From positions 1 through 64,000 of the forward strand of contig CBDCWP010000043.1 of assembly GCA_965223505.1 (NCBI GenBank): a stretch of DNA of 64,000 bases, read 5' to 3'. The notes under the pieces are model-generated. The model saw only the letters and a list, made by a program, of their open reading frames with translations. It had not been told where the DNA came from and made no database searches. Below, in pieces: positions 4,056-36,420 of the stretch; the stretch's first letter is position 1, and the number at the start of each line of letters is the position of its first letter. Made by a program: the position numbers and the translations under genes. The DNA comes from Planctomycetota bacterium. GTDB lineage: Bacteria; Planctomycetota; PLA2; JAEUHO01.

Positions 4056-4059
4056 GGTT

Positions 4060-11037: not shown

Positions 11038-11042
11038 CCTAT

Positions 11043-12293
11043 CTACTGGGCTTTGGGCAGGATGTGATCCACGCGTTTAGTGGGAGGCACGGCGCACCCG
11101 TACAAGCAGTGCCCACCAAAGTGCCCACCAGTGGATCCGGCCACCAGAGCCTCAATGCGTTCCTCCACGCGGTCCGCGTCCAGGTTGAGCTCGAGGATCC
11201 TGTCCAGCGCCTCTACAGCCTTCTTGCCCGCCTCGGGTGCGAAGTGGGCGTAGCGCATCGTCACTTGGATCGTCTCGTGGCCAAGCACCTTGGCAACGTC
11301 GAAGATGGGAACCCCGGCGGCGACCATGAGGGACGCAGCCGTGTGCCGAAGCACGTGCGTGGTGATCTTCGGCTTCTTGTGTGCAGGAATCTCGTCACAT
11401 GCCTGGACTGCGTTCGCGATGTCAAGGCGCAACATCGAGTGCGTGTAAACCGTCCCATCCAAGGCCGCGACGACCTGTCGATCAGGTGATCGGCGACGAT
11501 TCCCTAGAGTGAGGGCATGCCGGGATACTTCGGCGCGTAGCGTGGCGTTCATCCGGATCGTGCGGGGGCGGTGGTTCTTCGGATCCTCGACGAGGAGGGT
11601 CCCTTGTTCTAGGTCGATGGCCCGCCAACAGAGGCCCAGGATTTCCCCTCGCCGCATGCCCGTATTGAGTGCGATCACCAGAAACAGGCGCAGTCGCTCG
11701 GCAGCGGCGGCGACGAGTCCTCGCGCTTCAGCGGCCGTGAGATAGGTCTCGCGACCGCGAGGTGTACGCAGGCGCCGGACGCCCTGAACCGGGTTCTTCT
11801 CCGCAAGGCCGCGCTCGAGAGCCCAGCGGAAGAGGGCACTCGTGACCGCCAGGCCGTTGTTGACGGTCTGAGGTGATACGGAACTCTTCGCTCGTGCATC
11901 CATCCAGCGAACGATGTCGCGGCGTTCGATCTCATCGAGGAGCTTGGCGGTCCACTCCTCGCGCGCGATCATGGCCAAGAGCTTCCGGTACCCGTAGACG
12001 GTGTTGGGCCGGCGGTTGGCCTCGGCGTACTCGAGGTACTGCGGAACCGCGTCGCGGAATGTGATCTGGCCAGGAAGCGGGTCGCCGAAGACTTGATTCA
12101 GGACGACTTCGATCGGGGTGCGCTCGGCAAGGAGGTGTTGCACCCGGACAAGCAATCGCTTGGCAATCTCCTTCGTTGGCCCAGCTGGGCGGTCGTAGCG
12201 TTTGCGCGCCGCGCCCTGGCCGGCTCGAAAGCGGACGTAGTACTTCGAAGACCGAGAACGCCAGTAGATGCTCCCGAAGTCGCGCCTCCCCAT
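11043..12293 (-). CDS. Tyrosine recombinase / phage-type integrase
   Basis: NTGMRRGEI (R), DPKN (K), HVLRH (HxxR), LGH, MRYAH (Y); N-terminal GSIY arm-binding-like segment; RBS AAGGAGG. Confidence 0.95.
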   Translation of the reverse strand: MGRRDFGSIYWRSRSSKYYVRFRAGQGAARKRYDRPAGPTKEIAKRLLVRVQHLLAERTPIEVVLNQVFGDPLPGQITFRDAVPQYLEYAEANRRPNTVYGYRKLLAMIAREEWTAKLLDEIERRDIVRWMDARAKSSVSPQTVNNGLAVTSALFRWALERGLAEKNPVQGVRRLRTPRGRETYLTAAEARGLVAAAAERLRLFLVIALNTGMRRGEILGLCWRAIDLEQGTLLVEDPKNHRPRTIRMNATLRAEVSRHALTLGNRRRSPDRQVVAALDGTVYTHSMLRLDIANAVQACDEIPAHKKPKITTHVLRHTAASLMVAAGVPIFDVAKVLGHETIQVTMRYAHFAPEAGKKAVEALDRILELNLDADRVEERIEALVAGSTGGHFGGHCLYGCAVPPTKRVDHILPKAQ

Positions 12294-12306
12294 GACAACC
12301 CTCCTT

Positions 12307-12510
12307 CTACGAAACCACGCCCTCTTGGTTGTCGAACCAGCGCAGGAAAGTGGTCCTGCGGATCACCCAGCGCTTGCCCTGCTGGTTCCAGCCCGGTGCG
12401 TCACGCCGAAGACGAATGCGCTTTCGCATCGCCGGTGTGCGGACTCCATAGAACGCCGCAACGTCCTCGACATACAGCAGGTCGACCTCTGGTAGTCGTG
12501 CCCGGGGGAC
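12307..12510 (-). CDS. Excisionase-like helix-turn-helix ORF without a clear in-frame start (absent from the ORF track)
   Basis: Manual translation: VPRARLPEVDLLYVEDVAAFYGVRTPAMRKRIRLRRDAPGWNQQGKRWVIRRTTFLRWFDNQEGVVS*; ends just before the integrase RBS. Confidence 0.6.
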   Translation of the reverse strand, partial: VPRARLPEVDLLYVEDVAAFYGVRTPAMRKRIRLRRDAPGWNQQGKRWVIRRTTFLRWFDNQEGVVS

Positions 12511-12523
12511 ACTCTCCTTCCGG

Positions 12524-12868
12524 TCAGCTGCAGCCCGCCCAAAGTCGCATTGCTCCTCGTACCTTGCGGCGTCGGCGCTGCGCGTTCTCCGTCAGAAGGA
12601 CAGCCAGGGCAGCCTTGTCGTCCTCGGGGTCGAGCACGATGCAGGGAGCGTCCTTGGCCTTGAGCGCCTTCAGCGCAGCGTGGCGTCGGTGGCCGGCGAG
12701 GATCTCGTAGCCCGCTCCGTTGCGTTTAACGACAAGCGGCTGGAGCAGGCCGTGCTCGCGGATGCTCGCGATCAAGTCCGCCAAGTCGGCCTTGCGGTAC
12801 TCGCCCTTGTGACGGGCGTTCTGTGCGTGTCGCTTCAGGTGCGACAGAGGCAGGGATTCGGTCTTCAT
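12524..12868 (-). pseudogene. ParB/Srx N-terminal domain, apparently truncated
   Basis: LIASIREHGLLQPLVV, ILAGHRRHAA, ENAQR, then similarity is lost and the frame stops. Confidence 0.75.
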
Positions 12869-13015
12869 GCACTTCCTCCTCATGGAATGACGACGATTGG
12901 GACGGAGCGCTGCGAAGTCGGTCTCGCGCTCTACGTGGGCACACGGAGCCCTGAAACTGAGCCCCCGCCGCCTTTCGACTTGTTCCACCCGGCCAGGGGC
13001 GGTTCATTGGCGGCC

Positions 13016-16000
13016 ATGGAGGGAACACGCCTCGGTCCGTACCAGGTTCTCGCCGAGCTCGGCTCGGGCGGGATGGGGAAGGTCTACCGGGCCGAGGTCG
13101 CCGAGGAAGCGCCCGGCTTGGAGACGGGCTGCTCGGTCGCTCTCAAGGTCATCCACGCGCACCTGCTGAGCCAGCCGGGCTTCTTCCAGCGCTTCCTGCG
13201 CGAAGCGGACATTGGGCGTTCGGTCCAGCACGAGAACGTGGTCGAGACCTACGTGGCCGACGCGCTGCTCCACGAAGGCGTGCAACAGAACTTCCTCGTT
13301 ATGGAGTACGTCGAGGGCCAGACGCTGCGCGACCTGCTCGAGGAGCTGGAGCGCGTCCCCGAGGAACTCTGCCGCCACATCGGGCTCGAGGTGGCCAAGG
13401 GGTTGGCCGCGATCCACGAGGCCGGGGTCGTCCACCGCGACATCAAGCCGGAGAACGTGCTCATCACCGAAGCGCACGTCGTCAAGGTGATGGACCTCGG
13501 CGTCGCGCGCCTCCAGGACGAGGCGATCCGTCTGTCGCAGGTCGGAGCGTTCGTGGGGTCACTGGAGTACGCCGCGCCGGAGCAGTTCCGGTCGGCGGAC
13601 GGTGAGCCGGACGGACGCGCCGACCTGCACTCCTTGGGCGTCGTGCTCTACGAGTTGGCGACGGGGCAGCATCCCTACCGCGACGAGGACGCCTCCAGGG
13701 TGCTGCGCAACATCCTCGACGTGGCGCCGAGGAAGGCGGGGGAGGTGAACCCGCAGCTAACGCCGTTCTTCGAGGAGGTCATCGGCACGCTGATCGCCAA
13801 GGACCGCGATGAACGGTTCGCCGATGCGGCCGCCCTCGCGGCCGTGCTGGAGGAGGGCGAGCAGGGCGAGTGGTGGAAGGCACGCGCCAAGGCCCTGCGC
13901 ATCGAGACGCAGCGTCCGCTCCGGCGCATCCGCGTCCCGCGCGAGACGGCGCTCTACGGCCGCGACGATGACCTTGCCAAGTTGCACGCGCTCTTCGACA
14001 AGGCCAAGGCCGGTGACGGGCAAGTGCTCCTCATCGAGGGTGAGGCGGGCATCGGCAAGACGCGCCTCGTGGACGAGTTCGTCGGGCGGCTGAGGCAAGA
14101 TGGCGAAGACATCAACTTCCTCTTCGGCAGCTACCCGCCGGGCGGTGCGGCGACGGCGGCCGGGGCGTTCTCCGAGGCGTATCGCGCGCAGTTCGGCGAG
14201 GAGGGCTCGGCGCCCTGGCTCTCGCAGACGCCGATCCTTGTGCCCGCCTTCGATGCGCTGCTTCGGGGTGAACCCGCGCCCAAGGGCGCAGAACCCCTCA
14301 CGAAGGACTCGCTCGGGACGGTCTTCGTGCATGCGACGCGGAACCTCGCGGCTGAACGTCCGACGATCGTGCTTATCGACGACTTGCACTTCGCGCCCGA
14401 GGATGCGCGATCGCTGTTCATGACGTTGGCGCTCGCGGCGCCGGGTCATCCGGTCCTGCTCGTGGGGACGATGAGGCCGGGTGTAGACGAATCGTGGATC
14501 TCCAACGTGACTCGGTTGGACCATGCATCACACACAACGCTGTCGCGTCTGGGGCCGAAGGACCTGACGCGACTCTTGAAGGATGCCTTCCGATCCGAGC
14601 GTCTGGCCGAGGAGCTAGGCTTCAAGATTGCCGAGAAGTCTGACGGCAACCCGTTCTTCGCCTTCGAGATCATCCGAGGACTTCGCGAGGGGCAGTTCAT
14701 CACCCAGCAGCCTGACGGCACGTGGGTCAGCACGCAGGTAATCGATGACATCCAGATCCCTTCATCGGTGATGGATCTCGTCAAGGCACGTATCTCCGAC
14801 CTGACTCAGGTGGAGCGCGATCTACTCGACGTGGCGTCGTGTTGTGGCTTCGAGTTCGACCCCGGGCTGCTTGCCACCGTCGTTGGCCAAGGCCGAATCC
14901 CCGTGCTCAAGAGCCTTGCGCAGATCGAGCGTGCCCACCGGCTCGTCCGGTCACAGGGGCGCAGCTTCGTCTTCGACCATCACCAAGTGCAGGAAGCGAT
15001 CTATGGCAGCTTGCCGGAGATGCTGCGTGAGGAGTACCACGCCGCCCTCGCTGACGCGGTGGAGATGCGCGCGCAGGCTGCCGAGAGGGACCCGGAGGAT
15101 CTTGACGGCGCGCTGTGCGTGGATCTGTGCGAGCACTTCCTCAAGGGCGGGCAAGGAGAACGCGCGCTTCGCTACCTCGACGCAGGGCTCGACCACTTGG
15201 AGAAGGGCTACCTCAACGACCAAGCCATTGCGCTGGCGGACCGTGCCCTGGGTGAGCGAGGCTTGCTCGGGGGTGCTCGGCGTGTGGAGATGCTGCTCCG
15301 GATGAACGCACGCTTAGATCTGCTGGGGCGGAGGCGCACCCAGGAGGCCGTGCTGGAGGAGGCTCACACGCTCGCGGAGGGACAGAGGGCCAAGGACCTA
15401 CTGATGAGGGTGACGACTGCCATTGGGAGCTTTCTCCGCCTGACAGGTCGCCAAGAGGAGGCCTGGCAGAAACACGAGCACAGCCTCGAAATCGCCCGCG
15501 ACATCGGAGACCGCAAGGGCGAGGCCGACGCGAGGGGGCATCTGGGCGGTCTGTGCTGGAGCCTTGGCCGCTACGAGGAGGCCAGGGAGCACGACGAGCG
15601 GCGTCTCGCGATTGCTTGTGAGATCGGGGACCGCGTAGGTGAGGCTACGGCCACAGGTGGCCTCGCTCTTGTGTTCGTCGAACTCGGCCGCTACGAGGAG
15701 GCTAGGAAGCATCACTCACGAAGTCTCGCCATCGCCCGCCAGATCGGCGACCGGCTGGGCGAGGGCGTTGCTACAGGGAACCTTGGCGTTGTCGCAGCCT
15801 GCCAGAGTCGCTACGACGAGGCCATAAGGCACCACGACCGGCACTTGGCGATCGCCCGCGATATCGGCTACCGACGGGGTGAGGGCATCGCTAGGGGGAA
15901 TCTGGGCCACATCTACACGAATCTCGGTCGCTACAAGGAGGCCAAGGAGCAGTTTGATCGACGTCTGGGTATCGCCCGCGAGATTGGAGATCGACAGGGC

Positions 16001-16639
16001 GAGGCCATCGCCGTGTTTAACCTGGGCGCCCTGTCTATGGCACTCGGAGAAGTAGGCGAGGCGCGCGGCGCGTTTGGAGCATCCCTGGCGATCTGTCGCG
16101 AGACCCGTACCCACGTCTTGGAGGGGCACGTACTCCACGGTCTCGCAGCGCTCGCCCAAGAGGAGGGTGATTGGGGCGGAGCTTCCGACCTAGCAAGCCA
16201 AGCGCTGGCTGTGCGCCAGAAGACTGGCGTCGCTGGCGTGGCCGACTCACTCGTGCAACTTGGCGAGTCCTACTGCAAGAACGGAAACGCCGACGAGGCT
16301 CGGAGCGCGCTACAGGAAGCCGTGGATCTGCTACGTCAACAGCATCGCAAACCAGAACTCGCTCACGCCCTCAGCCTTCTCGCCAACCTCTCTGATGGCG
16401 ACGCCGACGCAGCCGAAGCAGCCCTGGAAGAAGCAGAAGAAGCAGGCAACACGCCCCAGACGCGCTACTACCTCTGGAAGGCCACCTGCAATCACGAGCA
16501 CCTCGCCGAAGCAAAGCACCTCCTCGACAACCTCATCGAGCACGCCCCCGAGGAGTGCCGCGAGTCGATGTTGAAGAACGTGCGACTGAACCGCGAGATC
16601 ATGGAGGCGTGGGAGGAGCACGGGGGCGAGGAGGCGTAG
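13016..16639 (+). CDS. Ser/Thr kinase - AAA ATPase (STAND-like) - TPR protein
   Basis: LGSGGMGKV, HRDIKPEN, MDLG; Walker A GEAGIGKT, Walker B LIDDLH; GNPFF; 40-aa repeats (AR.IGDR.GE..A.GNLG). Confidence 0.9.
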   Translation: MEGTRLGPYQVLAELGSGGMGKVYRAEVAEEAPGLETGCSVALKVIHAHLLSQPGFFQRFLREADIGRSVQHENVVETYVADALLHEGVQQNFLVMEYVEGQTLRDLLEELERVPEELCRHIGLEVAKGLAAIHEAGVVHRDIKPENVLITEAHVVKVMDLGVARLQDEAIRLSQVGAFVGSLEYAAPEQFRSADGEPDGRADLHSLGVVLYELATGQHPYRDEDASRVLRNILDVAPRKAGEVNPQLTPFFEEVIGTLIAKDRDERFADAAALAAVLEEGEQGEWWKARAKALRIETQRPLRRIRVPRETALYGRDDDLAKLHALFDKAKAGDGQVLLIEGEAGIGKTRLVDEFVGRLRQDGEDINFLFGSYPPGGAATAAGAFSEAYRAQFGEEGSAPWLSQTPILVPAFDALLRGEPAPKGAEPLTKDSLGTVFVHATRNLAAERPTIVLIDDLHFAPEDARSLFMTLALAAPGHPVLLVGTMRPGVDESWISNVTRLDHASHTTLSRLGPKDLTRLLKDAFRSERLAEELGFKIAEKSDGNPFFAFEIIRGLREGQFITQQPDGTWVSTQVIDDIQIPSSVMDLVKARISDLTQVERDLLDVASCCGFEFDPGLLATVVGQGRIPVLKSLAQIERAHRLVRSQGRSFVFDHHQVQEAIYGSLPEMLREEYHAALADAVEMRAQAAERDPEDLDGALCVDLCEHFLKGGQGERALRYLDAGLDHLEKGYLNDQAIALADRALGERGLLGGARRVEMLLRMNARLDLLGRRRTQEAVLEEAHTLAEGQRAKDLLMRVTTAIGSFLRLTGRQEEAWQKHEHSLEIARDIGDRKGEADARGHLGGLCWSLGRYEEAREHDERRLAIACEIGDRVGEATATGGLALVFVELGRYEEARKHHSRSLAIARQIGDRLGEGVATGNLGVVAACQSRYDEAIRHHDRHLAIARDIGYRRGEGIARGNLGHIYTNLGRYKEAKEQFDRRLGIAREIGDRQGEAIAVFNLGALSMALGEVGEARGAFGASLAICRETRTHVLEGHVLHGLAALAQEEGDWGGASDLASQALAVRQKTGVAGVADSLVQLGESYCKNGNADEARSALQEAVDLLRQQHRKPELAHALSLLANLSDGDADAAEAALEEAEEAGNTPQTRYYLWKATCNHEHLAEAKHLLDNLIEHAPEECRESMLKNVRLNREIMEAWEEHGGEEA

Positions 16640-16644
16640 TCCAC

Positions 16645-16932
16645 CTACGGACGGCACGCCCCGCAGGGCTGCCGCCCATCACGAGTGGCATCCTCTCGTG
16701 ACTCGCAGCCAACCAGGTTGCCAGCCGTGATCTTCTTGGCCCACTGGCAACTCGCCTCGTGGTACTTGTGGCTCCACTTGCTCGCGACAAAGGGCTGGCT
16801 GCGAGCTGCCTGTCCGCGAACAGCGGCATGGGCGGTTGGGAAGTTGGTGCGGTGCCTGGAGGAAGCGTCGCCTCCGTACGAGGCGAGGACGATCATCAGG
16901 CTGAGGGTGAACGCGAAGAGGATGGGTCGCAT
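16645..16932 (-). CDS. Small exported protein with Ada-type metal-binding domain
   Basis: FVAS..S.KYH...C..AK.I...N ... G..PCGACRP. Confidence 0.7.
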   Translation of the reverse strand: MRPILFAFTLSLMIVLASYGGDASSRHRTNFPTAHAAVRGQAARSQPFVASKWSHKYHEASCQWAKKITAGNLVGCESREDATRDGRQPCGACRP

Positions 16933-16940
16933 GGCTTCTC

Positions 16941-18029
16941 CTACGGCTGCACCGTGGCGGCCAGGATGTGCCCAGCGAGGGCACCGACACGACTGCGGTT
17001 CTCTGCATGGGCGTAGGCCTTGGCCGCGCTCGTGATCCCGTTGACCACGCCCCACACGCTCAGGTCACCGGGGTTCTCGGGCTCACGCACGAGGTGCACG
17101 ACCTCCCGAGCATCGGCCTGTGACAGCTTGAACTCCCGGTTCAAGCGCTTCACAGCCAGCTCCTCCTCGTTCGGCCCCTCCGGCACGAATCTCGTGTCCT
17201 TGGCCCGCTGGAAGACGTCATACTCGGCCGCGGTGATGGTCGTCCCGATGCGGACGAGGTTCTCGTGGAACTCCCGCACGACCTCCATGACGGTGCCCAT
17301 GTGGCGCACACGCCGGCTCTTGATGCCCGTGGCGTCCCAGATCAGGAAGTTGGCGCACATCTCCCGGAAGTAGAAGGTCGAGAAGCCGAAGCTCTTGGCC
17401 CCCACCTCGCTGTTGAAGACCATCACGCCCTTCCGAAGACCTCCGAAGCCGTCGTCTCCCGGCTCCTGGTCGGAGTAGAAGAAGGCAAACAGGTCCCGGT
17501 CACTACGGAACAGCGCGGGCTTGGTGTTGCCCATCAGGTTGGTACCGTGCTCGTCGGTGTTGATCGTCGGCATCGCAGGGATGAACCCCGATCCAATGAG
17601 CCACCGATCGACCTCCTCGAGGATGTCTGCGTCCCACACACGCTCGTAGCGGTCGCTGGTGACGCAGCGCAGGCGGTCGCCGTCGACCAGGGCCACCTTG
17701 TAGCGGCGGTTCCTCGGGAAGGTCTGATTGAGAACCCTCGCGCGAGTCTCACCGTTCAGGCGCTCCAGCACGGGCATCGGAACCTTGGCCATCGAGGCGA
17801 GCTGCCCGAGGCCGTAGGGCGTGAGCCGAAGGGTGGCCTCGCCAAAGTGGACGGATCTCCCGTCCTCCGAGAACAGGATCTTGTCGTCTCGGGCGTCCAC
17901 CGTCGCACAACGCTGGCGCTGATCCGACGCGTCAGAGAGCAGAGCCGGGAAGCTCTCGAAGTGCTCCTCGGGGGGCCTCGTGAACAGATTGTCCCTTGCT
18001 TGAGTGAGCAGGACCACGGCAGTCTCCAT
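16941..18029 (-). CDS. DUF932-like mobile-element protein
   Basis: LFTRPPEEHF, TSDRYERVWD, LFRSDRDLF.F, GVMVFNSEVG.KS, C.N..IW, WGVVNGIT. Confidence 0.65.
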   Translation of the reverse strand: METAVVLLTQARDNLFTRPPEEHFESFPALLSDASDQRQRCATVDARDDKILFSEDGRSVHFGEATLRLTPYGLGQLASMAKVPMPVLERLNGETRARVLNQTFPRNRRYKVALVDGDRLRCVTSDRYERVWDADILEEVDRWLIGSGFIPAMPTINTDEHGTNLMGNTKPALFRSDRDLFAFFYSDQEPGDDGFGGLRKGVMVFNSEVGAKSFGFSTFYFREMCANFLIWDATGIKSRRVRHMGTVMEVVREFHENLVRIGTTITAAEYDVFQRAKDTRFVPEGPNEEELAVKRLNREFKLSQADAREVVHLVREPENPGDLSVWGVVNGITSAAKAYAHAENRSRVGALAGHILAATVQP

Positions 18030-18088
18030 CTGGGCCTCTGGCCCGGTTCTTGATTCACTGGATGACGACGAAGTGCAGGAGACGATCC

Positions 18089-18517
18089 ATGGGCACGCCA
18101 GCACGCACCCCACCGGGGCTCGACCGCAGCCAGATCGAAGCGGCCCTGCGTCTCTTCGAGAGCATGGAGCAATGGAAGCGAACCGACCGCGCCCTTGCCC
18201 TGCTGGCAGATCGCTTCCCGACTCACGACCCTGAGTCAGTGCTGCTGAAGGCCTCGGTCCTGAACAGCCTCTACAGCACAGGCGTCCTCGCCATCGTTCG
18301 CATGGCGGAGCACATGGCCTCGGTGCTAGAGGGCATCGACACCGCAACCGTTGGGCCCGAGGTCATCGAGGATCTAGCGGTGCTTCCCGCCCTGGATGCA
18401 GGCGCGAAGCCCCGCCACAACGTCAGCCTGGCCTCGAAGTACGCCCACATCTTCATCAGCGAGGAGCGTTTCAGCGAACGTCCTCCCGGACATCTTGCGG
18501 GGTTGGTTCGGTCCTGA
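18089..18517 (+). pseudogene. Hypothetical protein fragment
   Basis: VLLKASVLNSLYST...SLASKYAHIF looks like a conserved domain cut off at about 18470. Confidence 0.4.
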
Positions 18518-19064
18518 TGCCGGTCTGCCAGGTACGAACTACCACGTGAGGTTCGTGGTTTCCGGAGACGCCTGGGTGCTTGAGCCTGAGCAGAAGGATG
18601 ACGGGCCAGGAGTTGAGTTCGAAGTAGATCGCGCATATCCCCGGACTCAGGTCGCTGAGCTCTTGGGCCGGCCGTACCGTGCGCCCCTCTGGGAACGCGG
18701 TCTTGTTACAGATGTGCCTGACCAACTGCTCCTATTCGTCAATCTTGACAAGGCTGGGATGCCTGAAGAGCACCAGTACGAGGACGGCTTTCGCGATCGC
18801 GAGACCTTTGCCTGGCAGAGCCCTGGTGGTCTTGCTCAGGAGTACAAGCAAGGCCGCAGGCTTCGCAATCACGAGTCTCTGGGCCTGCCGGTTCGTCTCT
18901 TTGTGCGTAAGGCCGCTAAGCTGGGCGGCAAGACCGCGCCCTTTGTCTACTGCGGCCGACTCACGTTCCTTGATTGGCACGGCGAGAAGCCGATCAGCGT
19001 CAGCTGGAGGCTCGACCCGCCGCTGTCTGATCGGCTGGTTCGCACCTTCGACCTGCAGTTTTAG
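18474..19064 (+). pseudogene. DUF3427-like C-terminal fragment
   Basis: ILRGWFGPDAG.PGT, LLFVNLDK, Y.D.F....F.WQS, LFVRK, PFVYCG; no convincing start of its own. Confidence 0.6.
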
Positions 19065-19301
19065 TGCGGGTGCGTGGCGCCAGGGCGCTCGTGTGCCTCA
19101 TCTGATCAACGCTCGGGGCCCGCAGAGGGGCACACTCAGAGCCTCAGCATCTCGCGATCGGCCTAAGCGGCGCAGGCATAGACGCTTTCGGCGGCAGCCG
19201 TCTAACCCTCATCGGTCTTCATCTCCCGTGCGCGGATGGCTCGTCGGTCTCGCGCCAAGTGACCCCGCGCCATACCCTCTGGGCTCGACGAGGAGGTATG
19301 G

Positions 19302-26104: not shown

Positions 26105-26233
26105 GTTCTTTTCTGCCGAATTCCGGCAGCCACTTCATCAATCGCGAGCGGGGGTTGGAGGCAAGTGCCCAATTGAAAGCAGCAGGCGCCGTGCTTGGCG
26201 CCTGCCGCAAGTCGCTCGGCTGCAGCAGCTCAG

Positions 26234-27610: not shown

Positions 27611-27811
27611 CGCATCCTCCATGTGTGGCGGTGCTTCAGGCACCGGCTCAGTGAGGTCAATCCCGTCCGGGTCGGAGGGTGCCGCGATTTCTGGGAAGGC
27701 CCGGCCGCCTTGCGAGGGCCAGCGCCTGCGCCCCATACTGCGCGCGCGGAATTGGTGGCACCCGTGTCCCAGTATCGGATTTGGCCCCCTGGAGACCCCT
27801 AGCGAACCCTC

Positions 27812-28432
27812 ATGCCCAATCCCCGCGAATCCACCGAAGAGCTGCTGGTCCAGCGGGCGAAGTCTGGGGATGAGCTTGCCCTGACGTCGCTCTTCGATCG
27901 ACACGCGCCGCGGCTCAAGCGCCGGATCCGCTCGAAGCTGTCGCCGGCCGTTCGGCGCAAGGTCTCCGACTCCGACGTGCTGCAGGAGACCTGGATGGCC
28001 GTGACCCGCCATCTCGATGACTTCGAGTACCGAGGGCAAGGCTCCTTTGTGGCGTGGGCGGGCACGATCGCCGAGAACGCCGCTCGCAAGCAGATGCGAC
28101 GGCACGCAGGCACGGCCAAGCGAGCTGCTGGGACCGAGGTAACTCGTGGCCTTCGTAAGGAGACCGTGCACCAGGCCGGACTCGCGCCGTCGCCGAGCGC
28201 GGCTGCGATGGGTCGCGAGATGCGTGAGCGCATCAGGGAGGGCATGCGGGCCCTGCCCGAGAGCTACCGCACCGTCATCGAGCTGTTGCAGCATCGGCGC
28301 GTCACGATCGTCGAGGCAGCGGAGCTGATGGGACGTTCGCCCAACGCCGTCAAGAAGCTGCACGCGCGCGCGCTCGCCGAGCTTGCCAAGCACGTGGGGC
28401 TGCGAAAGGGAGCTGACGATGGATCCCGCTGA
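27812..28432 (+). CDS. ECF RNA polymerase sigma factor
   Basis: A..GD..AL..LF, SDVLQET, LPESYR.VI.L, EAAELMGRS..AVK.L..RAL..L. Confidence 0.9.
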   Translation: MPNPRESTEELLVQRAKSGDELALTSLFDRHAPRLKRRIRSKLSPAVRRKVSDSDVLQETWMAVTRHLDDFEYRGQGSFVAWAGTIAENAARKQMRRHAGTAKRAAGTEVTRGLRKETVHQAGLAPSPSAAAMGREMRERIREGMRALPESYRTVIELLQHRRVTIVEAAELMGRSPNAVKKLHARALAELAKHVGLRKGADDGSR

Positions 28433-31400
28433 CGAAGTCGCCGACATCCTGGGACGTTGGCGCGAAGAGGCCGAGCACGGCCGCTACATCGAGCCCGACT
28501 CGCTCCTGGAGAGCCACCCCGAGCACGCAGCTGCCCTCGCGGACGGCCTCGAGATGCAGGGGTTGGTCGACCAGTACTTCGCCGAAGAAGACGCGCTTCC
28601 CTTCCTCACGCCCGAGCGCCTTGGCGACTACCGAATCGTGCAGGAGATCGGCCGGGGCGGCATGGGCGTCGTCTACGAGGCAGAGCAGGAGTCCATGCAG
28701 CGCCGCGTCGCGCTCAAGGTGCTCTATCCGACCATTGCGACGACCGTGCGGACCCGCAAGCGTTTCGAGCGAGAGGCGCGCCTCACCGGGCGGCTGCACC
28801 ACACGAACATCGTGACCGTGCACGCGATGGGCCGGCAGGACGGCTACTTCTACTTCGTGATGGAGCTCGTGCGCGGGCGGCCCCTCGACGAGGTCATCGG
28901 TGGGATGCGTACGCTGCGGAACGGCGACGAGCTAGCCGAGACGCTGGAGGGCACGGCCGCAGAACTAAGTGGGCGTGGCTCCCACGAGCGGATCGCGCGC
29001 ATGGCGGCGGAGGTGGCCGACGCGCTGCAGGTGGCCCACGGCCAGGGCGTTATTCATCGAGACGTGAAGCCGAGCAATCTGGTCCTCGACGAGGAGGCTG
29101 TTCTCAAGCTGACCGACTTCGGACTTGCGCACCTGGTGGGGGAGGACCTAGGCGTTACCCGAACCGGTGAGGCCATCGGCACGCCCAGGTACATGAGCCC
29201 AGAGCAAGTCCGGGCCCGACGTGAGGACGTAGACCACCGCACGGACGTCTACTCACTCGGCGCAACCCTCTACGAGTTGCTCACGCTCGAGCCCCCGCAC
29301 GACGGCGCGGACATCGGCACGCTGTGCTCCCAGATCATCAGGGACGAGCCACGGGCCCTTCGCCAGCTCGATCCGTCGATCCCAATCGACCTCGCGACCA
29401 TCGTGGAGAAGGCACTGCAGAAGGAGCCGGCCGATCGCTACGCGTCGGCGGCCGACATGGCCCGGGACCTCCGGGCGTTCGCCGACAGGCGGCCGATCGA
29501 CGCGCGTCGGCCGACGTGGATGCGCAAGGCCGTGCGCGTGGTCCGGCGTCATCCGGTCCGCTCAGCCCTCGTGGCCACGATCGTCCTACTGGCCGCGCTC
29601 GGGGCCTGGCTCCACACGGAGTCGCGCGCCGAGACCGAGCGCCGCATCGACGCGGAGTACGAACTGCTGCTCGTCGAGGCGCAGGAGGGTCGCGTCCGGG
29701 GTAGAGGCCACGCCCTGGAAGGCGGTGGCGCCGTGCTAAGCGTGGCAGCGGACGGCGACGCCGTCCGAGGAACGCTCGACCGCGCGATCGCGCTGAGGTC
29801 TGACCGCTTCGAGGCGTGGTTCTTGCGCGCACTGCTTGCACCCGCTTCGGTGCCGCTTGACGAGTCCATTGCGGACGTAGAGCGTGCGCGGACCAGGGGG
29901 CTGCCGGAGCGCACGGCCCTACTGGCACGAGCGCACCTCATGCTACGAGGGCGCCGCGCCGACCTCGCGACCGAGCTTACCGAGCGCGCGCGCCGCTTGC
30001 CCCGGGGCAGCACCCGCGACACATTCTTCGAGGGCGACTTGCTCGTACGCCAGGGGCGCTGGGCCGAGGGGGTCAAGCTGCTTTCCGAGGTGCTTGCCGT
30101 GACTCCCGCGACGGAGGGCGTACACGTCATGGCGCTGATGTCGCGCGCACGGGCTGCCGAGGCGGCCGGTGAGTGGAGTGCCGCCGTCACGGACCTCGCG
30201 GCGGCTCTCCACCAGCGGCCGGGCGACGGCGCCCTCGGGCTGAGGCTTGCGGGCGCGTGGCGCCACCTAGGACAGGAGAAGGAGGCGGAGGAAGTCCTCC
30301 GCGAAACGCTTCAGCGGCTGGCTGCGGGCAGCCGCGAAGCGGACTGGTTGCACCTCCTGTTCCGGGCCGAGGGTTTGGTTTGGGCGGATTGGCGCCTGCG
30401 TATCCACGAGGCGGCACATGCATCCGTACCTTCATCCGGGCGTATCACCGCCCGCTACGCGGTCGAACTCGCCATCCAACGGGAGCACGAACGGGCTCTG
30501 GAACTCGCGTCGGCTGCCGCCAGGAGCGTAGCGCCACGCTGGCGACATCGGATCGATGCCCACCTCGCGCGGATCCACGTAGAGGGGGGCGATCATGGGA
30601 AGGCGCTGCGCCTGTGGCGCAGTCTGCTCGAGCGCCACCCGGATCGGCTCGAGTACCTTGTCAATGCCGGGTGCTGTCAGATGCGGCTCGGTGACCTCGA
30701 AGGGGCTGAGGCCTTCCTGCGGCACGCCGTGGGCGTGCAGGAACATGAGCCCACGGCCCAAGCGAACCTTGCCGATGTGCTGCTGCGCTCGGGGGCTCCC
30801 GAGGAGGCCCTCCCGCACGCCGAGCGCGCCGTGCACCTCGCGCGGGGGGCCTGGGGGATTCGGTTCGTGCTCGCCCAGGTCCTTCAGCAACTGGACCGCA
30901 AGGCCGATGCGCTCGCCGCGGTGAAAAGGGCCATGGATCTCTGCCGCGCCACGAAGTCGGCTCGCCAGCTCTCGGTTCTCTCGTGCCGCCTGGGCGAGAA
31001 CGGATGGCACGAGCAAGCCCTGACGCTCCTTAGGGAAGCGCTTGACCTGAATGCGGATGAGCCCCGCATTCACCACAATCTCGCCGTCGCCTACATGACC
31101 CTTGGGGATCACGATCAGGCGCTCGTGTTCACGCGGGAGGCGATCAAGCGCGATCCCGACGCGACGGACTACCACACGTTGGCGCTGCTCTTGAGTCGGC
31201 GAGGCGAGTGGCTCGAGTCGCTCCAGGCGTGCGAGCGTGCCGTGGATCTCGACGAGAGCCTGAAGCCAACGCTTGCGAAGATGCTGTACAACTGGGGCAA
31301 CTGGCACTACCGAGGCGGCCGCTACCGGAAAGCGGCGGAGAAGTACCGTGCGGCCCTCGCGCAAGATCCCTCCAACGTCCATGCACATGCCAACCTCGGC

Positions 31401-32063
31401 GCGATGCTCTATACGATTGGTGACTACGAAGGCGCCATAGCGGCATGCCGAGCTGCGCTGGCCCTCGATGAAGCGCACGCCAACGCACGGGGCAATCTCG
31501 CTCACGCGCTGCACGAGCAGCGCAAGCCCCGCGAGGCCATCGCCGAGTACGAGAAGGTGCTTGAGGCGCATCCGGGTCATGCGGGAGCGCGGACGGGGCT
31601 GGCGAAGTCGAGGACGCTGTTGTCTCTCGTGAAGCGCACGCCACGTGTGCTCGCGGGAGCGGAGCAGCCGCGCAACGCGTTGGACGCGCTCTACATGGCC
31701 GACTTCATCCTGACAGGGCCACCGCGCCGTCCTCGCGCGGCGCTCAAGCTCTACCGCCTTGCGTTCCAGCAGGACGCGCGCTTGATGAACGCCCGGAGCG
31801 GTAGCCGCTACAACGCTGCCTGTGCAGCCGTGCTCAGCGAGGAGTACGAGACGGCCCTTACGTGGCTGGAGGCCGACCTGATCGCGTGGAAGGCTATGCT
31901 GCGCACCGCTCCGGCTGACGCTGCCTACACGCTTTCGCACTGGCAGCGCGACGGTGACCTGAAGGCAGTTCGTGAGGGAGACGATCTGGGTGAGCGCGCG
32001 ACTCGACTCTGGCGCGAGGTCGCACGGGTACTGAAGCAGGCGCAAGACGCGACTGCGAAGTAG
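28419..32063 (+). CDS. Ser/Thr kinase with TM helix and TPR repeats
   Basis: IGRGGMGVVY, HRDVKPSN, DFG, GTPRYMSPE; hydrophobic SALVATIVLLAALGAWL; many TPRs; overlaps the ECF stop. Confidence 0.9.
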   Translation: MDPADEVADILGRWREEAEHGRYIEPDSLLESHPEHAAALADGLEMQGLVDQYFAEEDALPFLTPERLGDYRIVQEIGRGGMGVVYEAEQESMQRRVALKVLYPTIATTVRTRKRFEREARLTGRLHHTNIVTVHAMGRQDGYFYFVMELVRGRPLDEVIGGMRTLRNGDELAETLEGTAAELSGRGSHERIARMAAEVADALQVAHGQGVIHRDVKPSNLVLDEEAVLKLTDFGLAHLVGEDLGVTRTGEAIGTPRYMSPEQVRARREDVDHRTDVYSLGATLYELLTLEPPHDGADIGTLCSQIIRDEPRALRQLDPSIPIDLATIVEKALQKEPADRYASAADMARDLRAFADRRPIDARRPTWMRKAVRVVRRHPVRSALVATIVLLAALGAWLHTESRAETERRIDAEYELLLVEAQEGRVRGRGHALEGGGAVLSVAADGDAVRGTLDRAIALRSDRFEAWFLRALLAPASVPLDESIADVERARTRGLPERTALLARAHLMLRGRRADLATELTERARRLPRGSTRDTFFEGDLLVRQGRWAEGVKLLSEVLAVTPATEGVHVMALMSRARAAEAAGEWSAAVTDLAAALHQRPGDGALGLRLAGAWRHLGQEKEAEEVLRETLQRLAAGSREADWLHLLFRAEGLVWADWRLRIHEAAHASVPSSGRITARYAVELAIQREHERALELASAAARSVAPRWRHRIDAHLARIHVEGGDHGKALRLWRSLLERHPDRLEYLVNAGCCQMRLGDLEGAEAFLRHAVGVQEHEPTAQANLADVLLRSGAPEEALPHAERAVHLARGAWGIRFVLAQVLQQLDRKADALAAVKRAMDLCRATKSARQLSVLSCRLGENGWHEQALTLLREALDLNADEPRIHHNLAVAYMTLGDHDQALVFTREAIKRDPDATDYHTLALLLSRRGEWLESLQACERAVDLDESLKPTLAKMLYNWGNWHYRGGRYRKAAEKYRAALAQDPSNVHAHANLGAMLYTIGDYEGAIAACRAALALDEAHANARGNLAHALHEQRKPREAIAEYEKVLEAHPGHAGARTGLAKSRTLLSLVKRTPRVLAGAEQPRNALDALYMADFILTGPPRRPRAALKLYRLAFQQDARLMNARSGSRYNAACAAVLSEEYETALTWLEADLIAWKAMLRTAPADAAYTLSHWQRDGDLKAVREGDDLGERATRLWREVARVLKQAQDATAK

Positions 32064-32296
32064 CTGCTCGCCCTCCCGTCGAACCGGCCGGCGGCAAGCA
32101 AGTGAAGGAAGAGTGGTCGTGCGACTGGGTGACCAGCAGCAGATCGAGCTAGGGGTCATCGGTGTCTGGCAATGCCGTTCCAGGTCCGGCGTGAACGACC
32201 CGTGACGTAGAAAACGGGCATCCTGTGTTCGGGGCACGCCGAAGAGTACAGATGGCCTTCCGGCAAGCGCTGACGAGACTCAACTCATTTTTCGGT

Positions 32297-32632
32297 TTAG
32301 GGCGCCCTCTCCGGAACTGTAGATAGCCGTGCTGCCAGGAGCGCCCACGCCGGTTCCGCTAGGCCAAATGCCTTGAGCATCAGTTCCCTCGTCTGCGGAA
32401 GGTGGATGGCGCTTGCGTCGAGGGCAGGCTCGTCTAGTTCGTCAAGGTGCCGGTCGGTCGTGCCCGCGCGCCCAGGGAACTCGAAGGTCGCTTCCGTCGA
32501 TCCTCGTCCGACCTGAGCGCTGTCGTACAGCGACATGGGTCGAAAAACGAACTCGCGGCCGTCGATCACCTCCCTCTTGAAGATCTCGTCTGCCACCGCC
32601 TCCCAGTCGCCGTCACGGCCGCCCTCGCGCAT
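32297..32632 (-). CDS. Hypothetical protein
   Basis: 111-aa ORF just downstream of the TIR gene on the same strand; no recognised motif. Confidence 0.3.
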   Translation of the reverse strand: MREGGRDGDWEAVADEIFKREVIDGREFVFRPMSLYDSAQVGRGSTEATFEFPGRAGTTDRHLDELDEPALDASAIHLPQTRELMLKAFGLAEPAWALLAARLSTVPERAP

Positions 32633-32683
32633 TCGCTTCTTCTTCGGCGCCGCCGCATCGCGCTCCTTGCGGATGCCCCTGCT

Positions 32684-33127
32684 CTAGGCGTTTGCGGCAC
32701 GGTCCAGCTTGACACAAACTTCGCTGAGGATGGCCTCTCTCTCTTGCGGCGACTTTCGATTTAACGCCACACTCGTGTCGTACGCAGCCTGGTAGGCGTT
32801 GATTTGTGTATTCTCGTAGTTGCAGGAGCCGAAGTAGATCCAGAAGATCGTCGCTCCGTCCTTCTGAGCAGCATCGAGCAACGGAAACCATTCCACTTTC
32901 TTGATGAACTCCGACGCAAAGAAGTTCTTCGTAACGACCAAGACGGCGACTTTCGCTCGCCCCAGCGCCTTTTTGATCTCGTCTTCCCAGATCTCACCGG
33001 GCTGAATCTCCGTGTCGTCCCAGACTCGAAGACCCTGATCGATGAACGGATCGAGCATCGTCTTCAACTCGTCTCGCCACTGGCGGTCCTTATGGCTATA
33101 GCTGATGAAGACTCCATTGCGTGCCAT
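32684..33127 (-). CDS. Stand-alone TIR domain protein
   Basis: VFISYSHKD, WDD..I.PG..W..EI..AL, ASEFI..VE; RBS GGAGGTG; visibly lower GC. Confidence 0.9.
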   Translation of the reverse strand: MARNGVFISYSHKDRQWRDELKTMLDPFIDQGLRVWDDTEIQPGEIWEDEIKKALGRAKVAVLVVTKNFFASEFIKKVEWFPLLDAAQKDGATIFWIYFGSCNYENTQINAYQAAYDTSVALNRKSPQEREAILSEVCVKLDRAANA

Positions 33128-33475
33128 CAAGCACCTCCGGTGTAGTTGAGTTGAGGATGGGCTGCATTGCAGCTTCGAACGGGGCGCCTGGTGGGTCCCG
33201 ACGCTTGACCATGGCGGCGATCGCATGCTCAAGCAGTCGCTCGGTCACTTCCGGACCTCCCGTGCGCCCCTCTGGTTCAGTACTGCGCGATGCCATCTTG
33301 TAACCGGCAGAGGGAGCGCGTACCTCGGCCTCTCGCTTGAACCGAGCGAGCAGGCCTGGATCGGTGCAGAGCCGGCGGAAGGACCTTGCTGCTTGGCCCC
33401 GCTCGTGGCCCCCGCAAACCTGTAGGGATGCTACAAGTCCCAGATCGCTGGGGGCGGGGCGAGGTGCAGAGCGCC

Positions 33476-33541
33476 CTTCAGAACCGCTGTGTCCCTGGGC
33501 AACCTGCGATAGGAGGGTTCGATTCCCTTGCTCTCCCGACA
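33476..33541 (+). repeat. att-like copy of tRNA-Sec from the anticodon loop to the 3' end
   Basis: 62/66 identical to 10972-11037. Confidence 0.92.
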
Positions 33542-33768
33542 CTACTTCTTGGGATCTGGGGGTGAGGTGGCCCGGCGAGTCAGCGGTCCCGCCACTGGGA
33601 CGAGGTACTCGCGAAGTGGGCACTCTGGTGGGCACACTACGGCCGATGACCAAGCGAGCTGTGCGGCCGCGCGTGGTTGTGCTCCCGGCGCCATTGCTTC
33701 GGCCCTGAGCCGGTCCGGTGGCACGTCCGGAGGGCGTTTCGTATGCTCCCCGACCATTGGAGAGCACG

Positions 33769-36420
33769 ATGCTCGAGCCGGGTCAGACCGTCCTCCACTA
33801 CGAACTGATCGAAGAGTTGGGCGAGGGCGGCATGGGCGCCGTGTGGCTCGCCAGGGACACGACGCTCGACCGCGCCGCCGCCATCAAGGTGCTTCCTGGC
33901 CGCTTGGCGGAGGACGAGCAGTTCCGCGCGCGTTTCGACCGTGAAGCGAAGCTGCTCGCGTCGCTCGACCACCCGAACCTCGCCACAGTCTTTGGCATCC
34001 ACAAGTTTGCAGACGCGCACTTCATCGCGATGGAGTACGTCCCGGGCGAGGACCTGTCGACGCGGCTCGAGCGCGGGCCGCTGCCCGTCGACGAAGCGAT
34101 CGCAGTCTGCGAGCAGGTCGCCTCGGTTCTAGAGTCGGCACACGAGGGCGGCGTGATCCACCGCGACCTCAAACCCGCGAACGTCCGCATCACGCCGGAC
34201 GGACGGGTGAAGGTGCTCGACTTCGGACTCGCGAAGGCGGTCGCGGCAGGCACCGAGGATGTTGACGTCTCGCTCACGGCAAGCGGCGTGCTGCTGGGGA
34301 CCGTCCCGTACATGAGCCCCGAGCAGGCGCGTGGTGAGGCCGTCGACGGTCGAACCGACATCTGGTCATTCGGGTGCCTACTCTTCGAGTGCCTGACCGG
34401 CAAGCACCCGTTCCCCGCATCGACCGTCTCGGACCAGATCGCGGCGATCCTGACAAAGGAACCCGACTGGAGTCTCTTGCCACCCGACCTGCCCGGGCCC
34501 GTGCGCGTCATCTTGAGGCAGTCACTTCAGAAGCCGGTCGACCAGCGCCTGAGCCACGTGTCAGGCGCACGGGTCGGGCTCGAGACGGCCGCCTTGGATC
34601 CGCCTCCCCGGAAGCCCGACAGGAGCAGGCTCCCGGTGCCGCTATCGGCCATCCTGGTGATCGGCATGATGGGTCTGTTGGCGTGGATCTTCACCCAGGG
34701 CGGCACGCAGCCGCCGAGGGGCAGCGTGCTCGAGGGTTACACGACGACGCGTTTCACCAACTTCCCGGGCGAGGAGATCGATGCCGCGATCTCGCCCAAC
34801 GGCGAGTTCGTCGCGTTCCTGGCCGACCGCAGGGTGACCAACCACGGCGCCGAGGAACTCGACGGCATCTTCCACGTCTTCCGCGGCCAGATCAGCACGC
34901 ACACGTTCGACCAGGTGAGCAAGGCGAGCGGCGAGGCGGGGATCGACGCGCCCATGCTCACGGTCCGGCGGCTCGGATTCCTGGGCGATGAGATGGGCCT
35001 GTGGGTCAGCGGCATCTTCCGGCACCTACGCCGGGTCTCGTTCGTCGGGTCCAAGGAGACGGACTGGCTCGAGCGGGGGATGATCCACGTCGATTGGTCC
35101 CCCGACGGCAAGCAGATCGTGTTCAGCCACATGCTCAACGGGGATCCGGTGTACGTGACCGAAGCCAGCTCCGCCCCCATCCCGACACCCGAGAAGCCGA
35201 TCCTCGGCTCCGAGGAGGGGTACCACCAGCACTTCCCCACGTGGTCTCGGGACGGCAAGTGGATCTACCTGATCCGGGGCATCGTAGCGTTCGGCGAGAT
35301 GGACCTCTGGCGCGTACGCCCGGACGGCAGCGATCCGCACCAGCTCTCGAGAGACCTGCGCAACGTCGCCTATCCCGTCCCGATGGACAAACGCACCGTG
35401 CTTTTCGTCGCCGAGACCGCGGACGGCAGCGGCCCCTGGCTCTGGGAGTTCGACGTCCCGTCGCGGACCGCGAAGCGTGTGCAGACTGGCGCCGACCGGT
35501 ACCTCTCACTCTCCGCGAGCCGCGACCTTAGCCGACTCGTCGCGACGGTGTCGAACCCGACTGCTTCGCTGTTCACAATCCCGCTCAGGAAGTTGGAGGC
35601 CGAGGGCAAAGCGACCGAGGCCGAGGTGAAGCCCTATCCGCTTCCGGCGGTGCGCGCGCTGTGCCCGCGCTTCCGCGGCGACGTGCTCTACTTTCTTTCC
35701 TCGCGCGGCGCCGGCGACGGGCTCTGGCGCCACGAGCGCGGCGCCTCCCAGCCGCAGGAGATCTGGTCGCCGCGCCAGGGCCCCATCCTCGAGCCCCCCG
35801 CGATCTCGCCGGACGGGACCCACGTCGCGCTCGTGGCACGCACACCGAAGCCTGAGCTTTACGTGATCAACGCGAACGGAAAGACGAGAACCCGGATCAT
35901 GGCGGACGTCGAGGTGCTCGGCGCGCCAGCGTGGTCCCACGACAGCGAGGCGGTGTATTGCGGTGGCCGGCGGAACGGCGAGCCCGGGCTGTTCCGCGCA
36001 ACGCGCGAGGATGGCTGGAAGGCCGCGCTCCTGGTTCGGGCGCAGGCCACCAACCCCGTCTGCTCGTCGGACGGCGAGCTGATCTTGTTCGTGGGCCGCC
36101 ACGTCGCCACGGGGCAGCGCCTCTTCGCAGCCACGCCGGACGGTACGCAGAAGAAGGACTTCCCCCCGATCTGGACCCGTCCCTTCGGCGAGCGTGTCCG
36201 GTTCCTGCCCGACGGGTCGGGATTCGTCTACATGAGGGGCGTCGATCCCACGCAGGAGTTCCGCTACTTCGACCTCAAGACCGGCAAGGACATCGAGATC
36301 TCCGCCCTCGAGGACTCGTCCGTCATGCGCACGTTTGACATCACGCCCGACGGCAAGTCCATCGTCTTCGGCCGCCAGCGCGCCAACGCAGACATCGTGC
36401 TGATCCAGCGCGAAGACTAG
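33769..36420 (+). CDS. Ser/Thr kinase with TM helix and TolB/PD40-like beta-propeller
   Basis: LGEGGMGAV, HRDLKPAN, DFG, GTVPYMSPE; repeated SPDG/WSPDG motifs. Confidence 0.9.
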   Translation: MLEPGQTVLHYELIEELGEGGMGAVWLARDTTLDRAAAIKVLPGRLAEDEQFRARFDREAKLLASLDHPNLATVFGIHKFADAHFIAMEYVPGEDLSTRLERGPLPVDEAIAVCEQVASVLESAHEGGVIHRDLKPANVRITPDGRVKVLDFGLAKAVAAGTEDVDVSLTASGVLLGTVPYMSPEQARGEAVDGRTDIWSFGCLLFECLTGKHPFPASTVSDQIAAILTKEPDWSLLPPDLPGPVRVILRQSLQKPVDQRLSHVSGARVGLETAALDPPPRKPDRSRLPVPLSAILVIGMMGLLAWIFTQGGTQPPRGSVLEGYTTTRFTNFPGEEIDAAISPNGEFVAFLADRRVTNHGAEELDGIFHVFRGQISTHTFDQVSKASGEAGIDAPMLTVRRLGFLGDEMGLWVSGIFRHLRRVSFVGSKETDWLERGMIHVDWSPDGKQIVFSHMLNGDPVYVTEASSAPIPTPEKPILGSEEGYHQHFPTWSRDGKWIYLIRGIVAFGEMDLWRVRPDGSDPHQLSRDLRNVAYPVPMDKRTVLFVAETADGSGPWLWEFDVPSRTAKRVQTGADRYLSLSASRDLSRLVATVSNPTASLFTIPLRKLEAEGKATEAEVKPYPLPAVRALCPRFRGDVLYFLSSRGAGDGLWRHERGASQPQEIWSPRQGPILEPPAISPDGTHVALVARTPKPELYVINANGKTRTRIMADVEVLGAPAWSHDSEAVYCGGRRNGEPGLFRATREDGWKAALLVRAQATNPVCSSDGELILFVGRHVATGQRLFAATPDGTQKKDFPPIWTRPFGERVRFLPDGSGFVYMRGVDPTQEFRYFDLKTGKDIEISALEDSSVMRTFDITPDGKSIVFGRQRANADIVLIQRED

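Follow-up and report, generated by a model that had tools for sequence, protein, structure and literature searches.

Does the kinase-rich region beside the selenocysteine tRNA gene (selC) of a Planctomycetota bacterium (assembly GCA_965223505.1) constitute one mobile signalling and immune system, or is it an assortment of genes that arrived separately? The region lies within the first 64 kb, hereafter the window, of a 137-kb contig (CBDCWP010000043.1, here C43) of a 5.15-Mb genome that is 92% complete. A first-pass annotation of the window had read about 25 kb next to selC as a single integrative island carrying five Ser/Thr kinase genes, a STAND-like (signal transduction ATPase with numerous domains) sensor, a TIR gene, and a diversity-generating retroelement (DGR). 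In a Pfam profile search of open reading frames (ORFs; 23 + 22 of them), all of the listed gene types were confirmed, including a DUF3427 fragment, two DGR kinases, the TIR protein, and a kinase-PD40 protein, and selC was confirmed by ARAGORN and Rfam. We nevertheless arrive at a different answer. selC is an integration hot spot in the Planctomycetota lineage of this genome, and the reading that we favour as likely is that two successive islands entered this site and accreted independent cargo, of which a self-contained DGR forms a part.

The boundaries of the islands were recognized from copies of the tRNA 3' end. The tRNA-SeC gene is located at 10939–11037 on the forward strand (Rfam RF01852, 69.2 bits versus a gathering score of 47), and its 3' part (10972–11038, +) serves as the left attachment (att) copy. 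Copy 2 occupies 26039–26105 (+), with a core of 46 nt (26059–26104) that is 96% identical to the tRNA 3' end, and copy 3 occupies 33476–33542 (+), where 63–66 nt from the anticodon loop to the 3' end are 94–95% identical (27 bits in Rfam, below the threshold). All three copies are in register with the 3' end of tRNA-SeC and reach exactly its last base. A tyrosine integrase gene (11043–12293, −; Phage_integrase 6.2e-25, phrog_1 2.3e-72) begins 5 bp from the tRNA. Together with the recurring tRNA 3' end, this position is characteristic of a selC gene that has received two integrations in succession. The intact integrase belongs to island A (11038–26105), and island B (26105–33542) contains none. 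The att copies therefore divide what had been taken for a single 25-kb island into two tandem islands ending at 33542, and the fifth kinase gene, encoding the kinase-PD40 protein (33718–36420), lies beyond copy 3 and outside both of them. The integrative nature of the region itself is borne out by the integrase adjoining selC and by the repetition of the tRNA 3' end in direct orientation at the far borders, the features of a tRNA-integrated island. The DGR was also correctly reported to end 56 bp before an att copy, since the stop codon of its last gene is at 26002 and the core of copy 2 starts at 26059. We hold the presence of two tandem islands at selC, along with the complete DGR anatomy described below, to be very likely.

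The integrase of island A is full length, with the HxxR motif and the C-terminal RY motif visible, and is likely to be active at present, as far as its sequence can tell; a 74% identical ortholog adjoins selC in a relative (G008). Two further genes make up a mobile-element backbone. One encodes a ParB N-terminal-domain protein (12524–12988, −; ParB_N 5.8e-16, with ParB-like PHROGs), and the other a DUF932-like conserved protein (16941–18032, −, in an ORF extending to 18347; phrog_1362 6.7e-20) for which 137 homologs were found, with identities of up to 90%, some carrying PF06067 and one being named "Planctomycetes bacterium". The region had been described as free of phage and conjugation genes. 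This holds for structural phage, relaxase, and type IV secretion genes, none of which was found in the region by the Pfam and PHROGs searches, and does not hold for the integrase (phrog_1), ParB_N, and DUF932-like (phrog_1362) genes. As to the order of events, island B would have been inserted first and would then have lost its integrase. Island A, which retains its integrase and ParB_N/DUF932-like backbone, would have been inserted later and may still be mobile.

Other members of the lineage show that the site is used repeatedly. Among 40 relatives, four from related genera possess a full tRNA-SeC gene with a partial 3' copy 10–56 kb away on the same contig (G001:C35, G015:C2, G020:C14, and G008:C1), and integrase fragments adjoin selC in G009 (87.5%) and G004 (68%). 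A survey of 107 ORFs in the other selC islands identified McrBC, Z1/HATPase_c_3, D12 and MmeI/Eco57I-type methylases, DarT, SNF2, PLD, AbiEi/AbiEii, TIR_2, and DUF4062 as cargo. selC is thus a hot spot for defence islands, and its accreted cargo here includes a known kind of DGR. The repeats at the relatives' islands are of two lengths (about 66 nt, and 30–46 nt), which suggests that two integrase types use the selC site. In its tyrosine integrase beside a tRNA, direct repeat of the tRNA 3' end, tandem accretion, and variable defence-type cargo, the locus resembles other tRNA-targeted genomic and defence islands; it differs from them in its planctomycete host and in a cargo dominated by eukaryote-like kinases. 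selC-integrated islands are known in enterobacteria, and the DGR of Legionella is island-borne.

The DGR at the right end of island A is compact and apparently intact, with two targets, one template repeat (TR), a reverse transcriptase (RT), and the accessory protein Avd within about 6.8 kb. DGR-type RTs are defined by an [I/L]GxxxSQ motif and a YxDD catalytic box. The RT encoded at 22350–23609 (−; RVT_1, phrog_1423 2e-110), whose likely start is Met 33 at about 23513, contains IGNLTSQ at residue 234 and YADD at residue 266. The gene order is RT then Avd, and avd (22060–22452, −; bAvd 4.1e-19, NCBIfam NF033474 88.6 bits versus a cut-off of 80) overlaps the 3' end of the RT gene by about 100 nt. 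The first target, T1 (19302–21707, +), consists of a kinase domain, a coiled-coil linker, a PEGA domain, and an FGE-sulfatase domain of the C-type-lectin fold. The second, T2 (23594–26002, +), is divergent from the RT gene and encodes a 64% identical paralog with kinase, PEGA, and FGE-sulfatase domains. The FGE-sulfatase domains (2.9e-37 in T1 and 4.1e-41 in T2) extend to the last residues of the proteins, and the last 42 codons of each gene form a variable repeat (VR). Compared with the TR, which is 127 nt long and has 27 adenines (21789–21915, +, the target strand), VR1 (21578–21704, +) shows 17 mismatches, 16 of them at TR adenines, and VR2 (25873–25999, +) shows 15, of which 14 are at TR adenines. 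The differences common to both VRs, T121G and A123G, fall in the 3' end resembling an initiation-of-mutagenic-homing (IMH) sequence. Of the TR adenines, 24 of 27 occupy codon positions 1 or 2, in nine AAC codons and one AAT codon. The RT motifs, the adenine-specific TR/VR mismatches, the VR at the C-terminus of the lectin fold, and Avd are thus all in place, so that the diversifying recognition system proposed for the region is real, and diversification is likely to be active now. A promoter and terminator scan of 21500–23800 returned no site.

The genome contains one RT and one intact TR of this kind. A second cassette lies on another of its contigs (C10:51842–59352) and comprises two kinase-PEGA-FGE genes about 62% identical to T1 and T2, one of which is frameshifted near 58405, and a TR remnant cut off after about 56 nt. 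Its VR-like ends are 82–84% identical to the TR of the window, with differences at non-adenine positions included. No RT or Avd was found there by tblastn at an E-value of 1e-5, and tblastx gave only noise outside the VR/TR region. The cassette looks like a frozen relic. The order in which the four kinase-lectin paralogs arose was left unsettled by both trees, in which only their grouping apart from those of G030 and G068 was supported (88/93).

The orientation of the template is unusual. The varied adenines are on the forward strand and the RT and Avd genes on the reverse strand, an inverted layout. It follows that the template RNA has to come from the target strand, from a stretch immediately downstream of T1 and in convergent orientation to avd. 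The same inverted layout was found in all four of the other examined loci whose RT is at least 58% identical to this one, namely L061 (75%; a short contig with the TR at the contig end), L042 (60%), L043 (60%), and L041 (58%). The inversion is therefore not an accident of this genome. In addition, about 145 nt following the TR on the target strand (21916–22062, +) contain conserved blocks and two main hairpins across the five loci, with 79% nucleotide identity between the window and L061. The comparative RNA analysis gave a structure of 36 pairs, in which 92.8% of the cells are paired, as compared with 38–49% when the partners were slid. Nine of the pairs are compensatory, with both sides changed, a number reached by none of 500 shuffles, and several G-U pairs are compatible with the target strand alone. 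These results are suggestive of a conserved, covarying RNA element, which is a candidate for the spacer or priming region of inverted DGR RNAs and putatively the 3' part of the DGR RNA. It matched no family in Rfam, and folding of the single sequence 21705–22065 was not significant (z = −0.76), so that only the comparative analysis is informative.

Inverted DGRs are known but rare (PMC3521204; PMC6602519). The group 4 DGRs of Shewanella, Vibrio, and Photobacterium (Schillinger et al. 2012, PMC3521204) likewise have the RT on one strand and the TR, VR, and target on the other, and their RT mRNA and template RNA are separate transcripts. The present DGR differs from them in the order of RT and Avd, in a second target divergent from the RT, and in its host phylum and targets. 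We consider it likely, short of proof, that the inversion arose independently of group 4.

What, then, might the two diversified kinases do? T1 and T2 keep the kinase motifs GxGxxG, VAMK, HRD, DWG (in place of DFG), and SPE, and neither contains a hydrophobic segment above the Kyte-Doolittle threshold (19-residue window), the measure used here for transmembrane calls. From the retained catalytic motifs and the missing hydrophobic segment, they are probably active cytoplasmic kinases, with a lectin-fold tip that the DGR would rewrite. A transcript of the target strand would carry the TR and the structured spacer, and RT-Avd, expressed from the convergent operon, would copy the template into cDNA with random bases opposite the template adenines. 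This cDNA would replace the last 42 codons of T1 and T2. A ligand bound in the variable pocket would then switch the kinase on, either by release of autoinhibition or by clustering mediated by the coiled coil, and the cell would thereby hold a repertoire of intracellular sensors. Such gating of the kinase by the variable pocket is, in our view, the most likely mode of action. The ligands may be molecules of invaders, a possibility that falls somewhat short of an even chance, or, with slightly less weight, signals of the cell itself.

The latter possibility leads to the strongest of the competing explanations, in which the DGR-kinase cassette has a regulatory role within the cell and is found on an island only incidentally. 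It would tune the specificity of the kinases for ligands or substrates, a role proposed for the kinase-lectin variable proteins of cyanobacteria. Kinase-lectin fusions constitute a large paralog family in this genome, with 13 in-frame Pkinase+FGE ORFs, most of them lacking a TR match. Vallota-Eastman et al. (2020, PMC7517822) present a similar picture of dispersed paralogs and a regulatory hypothesis. There, too, an N-terminal Hanks-type kinase is joined to a C-terminal lectin fold with the VR at its very end, and the proteins are mostly cytosolic with many non-diversified, dispersed paralogs. The present locus departs from that account in belonging to another phylum, in having two targets that flank RT-Avd, an inverted template, and a PEGA and coiled-coil linker, and in its tRNA-integrated carrier. 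Furthermore, two of the three closest loci with flanks (L042 and L043) are located among housekeeping genes, and PADLOC recognizes no defence system in the region. On the other hand, the cassette is carried by a selC island, and the other islands of this family bear defence genes; related RTs, moreover, diversify NACHT, KAP, TIR, SIR2, and caspase fusions typical of conflict systems (see also PMC10907252). We regard the purely regulatory role as unlikely, while giving it more weight than the remaining alternatives.

The same relatives bring the locus close to the clade 5 DGRs, which Dore et al. (2024, PMC10907252) present as putative antigen sensors of conflict systems. The closest named relatives of the RT are Planctomycetia and Planctomycetota metagenome-assembled genomes. 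The likeness to clade 5 consists in RT relatives that include Thiohalocapsa PB-PSB1 (45% identity), in relatives within the phylum that target NACHT-, KAP-, TIR-, SIR2-, and caspase-lectin fusions, and in loci that are RT-less relics, like the one on C10. That paper, which proposes that relatives of this RT clade diversify antigen sensors, stresses multicellular bacteria and transposon-driven dynamics, whereas the carrier here is an integrase island at selC. An explicit immune version of the proposal would make the cassette a transferable anti-invader module, in which proteins of phages or plasmids are recognized by the pockets of T1 and T2, whereupon the kinase sets off a response, either protective or abortive. 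We consider this version distinctly improbable. If true, a 'receptor kinase' immunity that spreads horizontally and diversifies somatically would exist in a phylum that is not multicellular; the transcript of the target itself would carry the template, together with a dedicated structured spacer RNA.

We now turn to the notion that the whole stretch of about 25 kb is one mobile, functionally coupled signalling and immune system, in which the DGR kinases, the STAND-like kinase, the sigma factor/kinase pair, the TIR protein, and the propeller kinase act together. The kinases are indeed concentrated here: as the first-pass annotation stated, the remainder of the window is free of them (no kinase among 51 ORFs of at least 220 aa outside the region), and the only PF00069 matches in C43:1–64000 are the five in question. 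With five kinase genes in 25.4 kb, the region is the densest kinase cluster of the genome, the next three clusters having four each, a point in favour of the one-system idea. So is the presence, in this RT clade, of a TIR-NACHT-FGE fusion (L044) and of a kinase-NACHT-FGE fusion with an upstream gene for an extracytoplasmic function (ECF) sigma factor (L052), domain types that cooperate elsewhere. L052 (G411:C1:6089800–6109799) has two DGR targets (3860–8326 and 11021–14710) that fuse kinase, NACHT, and lectin domains, one with the ECF sigma gene directly upstream, and modules of the kinase, STAND, and ECF types are thereby connected at a related DGR locus.

The neighbourhoods of related RTs argue differently. 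Among 20 loci of the phylum with RT homologs, from which 233 ORFs were picked, kinase+FGE targets were found at six, including the three closest ones with flanks (RT identity 58–60%), and NACHT- or KAP-FGE targets at five. An integrase was present at one locus (L041, with a resolvase and AAA_25), and TIR at one, fused to the target. The three closest flanked DGR loci, where only the kinase-lectin targets recur, were without a neighbouring STAND-like kinase, ECF/kinase pair, or free TIR gene. L041 also lends substance to the idea of a DGR on a mobile carrier, since the subclade is associated with an integrase in this one other genome. The closest relative of the island backbone, a contig of 7.4 kb (L187), encodes the DUF932-like protein (69%) and ParB_N (61%) 1.2 kb apart with no kinase gene between them, and neither a STAND-like kinase nor a DGR was found on its 7.4 kb. 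An Abi_C gene (3597–4790, −) adjoins its DUF932-like gene, in the place taken in the window by the DUF3427 remnant and the DGR. A metagenome scan with the DUF932-like protein yielded ten loci, of which only L187 had useful flanks and none contained a tRNA, kinase, or DGR.

All of the gene types are, moreover, multi-copy in this genome, which has 75 kinase loci, 11 TIR_2 matches, and 17 integrase matches, together with 11 kinase-AAA_16 and 13 in-frame kinase-FGE fusions, the fusions being counted as open frames matching between separate domain searches. The att copies split the region into three parts, the non-DGR genes are missing from the three closest flanked loci and from L187, and no kinase above 70 bits (tblastn) was detected in the stretches covering the four other selC islands. 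The att cuts, the missing co-occurrence, and the multi-copy paralogs point to accretion at a hot spot and give no support to functional coupling. A single coupled system is therefore very doubtful. Only the RT-Avd-kinase-lectin module recurs as a conserved unit, and the other genes are probably independent cargo and not parts of one machine. This outcome comes close to the accretion of common paralogs that had been named in advance as speaking against the island hypothesis. Of the proposed signalling and immune-like island, the coherent unit finds no support, given the att boundaries, the absent co-occurrence, and the common paralogs, and the immune-like flavour survives indirectly, in that the relatives' selC islands are loaded with defence genes.

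Two other places in the genome also bring kinase genes together. On the same contig, beyond the window, C43:107–121 kb contains four kinase genes, one of which encodes a kinase-AAA_16 fusion, and close to them lies an ORF with an FGE domain. On contig C21, a 40% identical paralog of the island A integrase (C21:376769–377944) is situated 6–15 kb from three kinase genes (C21:383–392 kb), which are among the best matches to the T1 kinase domain outside the cassettes (42% identity). The C21 locus may be another kinase-bearing island.

A further alternative takes the att-like repeats for something other than scars of integration and sees the region as ordinary chromosome in which kinase genes were duplicated locally. 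It would fit the lack of compositional contrast and the supported grouping of the genome's four kinase-lectin paralogs, which suggests duplication within the lineage, but it is scarcely credible given that the repeats match the tRNA 3' end in register and to the last base, that the integrase abuts the tRNA, that the same 66-nt segment is duplicated at the selC islands of G001 and G015, and that the backbone genes are typical of mobile elements.

Several observations weigh against the reading of two successive islands at a defence hot spot with a self-contained DGR. The GC content is 0.63–0.70 in the region and 0.65–0.69 in the flanks, so that the islands do not stand out as foreign by composition. 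An empty selC site was not encountered among the 40 relatives, a panel with no genome of the same genus, in which the sites are occupied by other islands or have different flanks. In one relative (G012), a kinase gene lies about 8 kb from selC. PADLOC, one of the checks proposed at the outset, detected no complete defence system in the region and returned domain-level matches only (PD-T4-6, a generic RT, and a ThsB-like TIR). All five kinases matched PD-T4-6 models over the kinase domain only, as any Hanks kinase would, and a defence reading of the kinases is suggested solely by their context. The neighbourhood ORFs were chosen by a heuristic based on GC content at third codon positions, which misses overlapped genes (in the window, Avd and the ECF gene), making the absences reported above soft, and the Pfam E-value limits differed between the two neighbourhood runs (1e-6 and 1e-8). 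As for the inverted layout, the VR of L042 is less clean, with 18 of 29 mismatches at template adenines, and the spacer covariation comes from five sequences and a structure predicted from the same alignment.

The remaining cargo of island A would, under the favoured accretion, have joined the DGR independently. It includes a Ser/Thr kinase with an AAA_16 NTPase domain and TPRs (13013–16639, +; Pfam), the STAND-like protein, which is encoded by a long ORF from 12680 with a likely start near 13013 and is one of the 11 kinase-AAA_16 fusions of the genome. PADLOC gave no Avs-type NTPase match, and the AAA_16-TPR part matched generic TPR models only. Downstream is the C-terminal remnant of a helicase/nuclease-type DUF3427 protein (18396–19064, +), covering positions 125–279 of the 280 of the DUF3427 profile and, in PADLOC, positions 829–931 of the 945 of mREase_IV.

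Island B appears to have contributed a secreted beta-propeller protein, an ECF sigma/transmembrane kinase-TPR pair, and a small TIR protein. The first is a Delta-60/DUF5122 beta-propeller repeat protein with an N-terminal hydrophobic segment (26234–27610, −, in a long ORF to 28447; Pfam, hydropathy, and TIGR02608 2.5e-61). The ECF-type sigma factor gene (27812–28432, +; Sigma70_r2/r4/ECF), whose best match is the Planctomycetaceae-specific Sig-70_plancto1 (1e-31, below the cut-off), is directly upstream of the gene for a Ser/Thr kinase with a transmembrane segment (aa 391–413) and a TPR array (28383–32063, +; Pfam and hydropathy). The two ORFs overlap, as expected of an ECF/kinase signalling pair. 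The stand-alone TIR_2 protein (32684–33232, −, likely start about 33127; TIR_2 3.3e-16) showed domain-level ThsB/SAVED-TIR matches in PADLOC, with ThsB1 at 3.3e-13. No Thoeris system, that is, ThsB with ThsA, was found, as the TIR gene is not accompanied by ThsA. The neighbouring ORF of 111 aa downstream of it (32297–32632, −) had no family match in Pfam, PADLOC, PHROGs, or NCBIfam and was matched in two of 401 genomes of the phylum, one being its own and the other match weak. This ORF may encode an orphan partner of the TIR protein, or else it may not be a gene at all.

Outside the islands, the protein encoded at 33718–36420 (+) combines a Ser/Thr kinase, a transmembrane segment, and a PD40 beta-propeller, as judged from Pfam, hydropathy, and its position relative to att copy 3. 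It has one full-length ortholog (51%, in G033), on a 4.3-kb contig without a tRNA. The flank genes of the window gave no match above 70 bits in the selC neighbourhoods of eight relatives. On the other side of selC, a 1370-aa ORF without a Pfam match (3970–8082, −) adjoins a DUF1800/DUF1501 gene pair (505–3980).

A tRNA-integrated island and a kinase-lectin DGR are both known kinds of elements. The less common traits are the inverted template with a conserved spacer, the RT-then-Avd order, the two flanking targets, and the carriage at selC in a planctomycete-like genome. Our search of the literature, which was not exhaustive, found no description of an inverted DGR in Planctomycetota, of a DGR on a selC island, or of these traits together; the supplements of PMC10907252 and PMC8144416 may list such loci. 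The best interpretation of the striking signalling and immune-like cluster beside selC is that elements accreted in tandem at a hot spot, and not that they form one system. For the DGR, this places a diversifying element on a defined integrative island, in a lineage whose integration site collects defence genes. The covarying spacer on the target strand offers a handle on how inverted DGRs produce their template RNA. DGR-diversified kinase-lectin proteins have been proposed as regulators or as antigen sensors, and this locus is a good candidate for transfer and challenge experiments.

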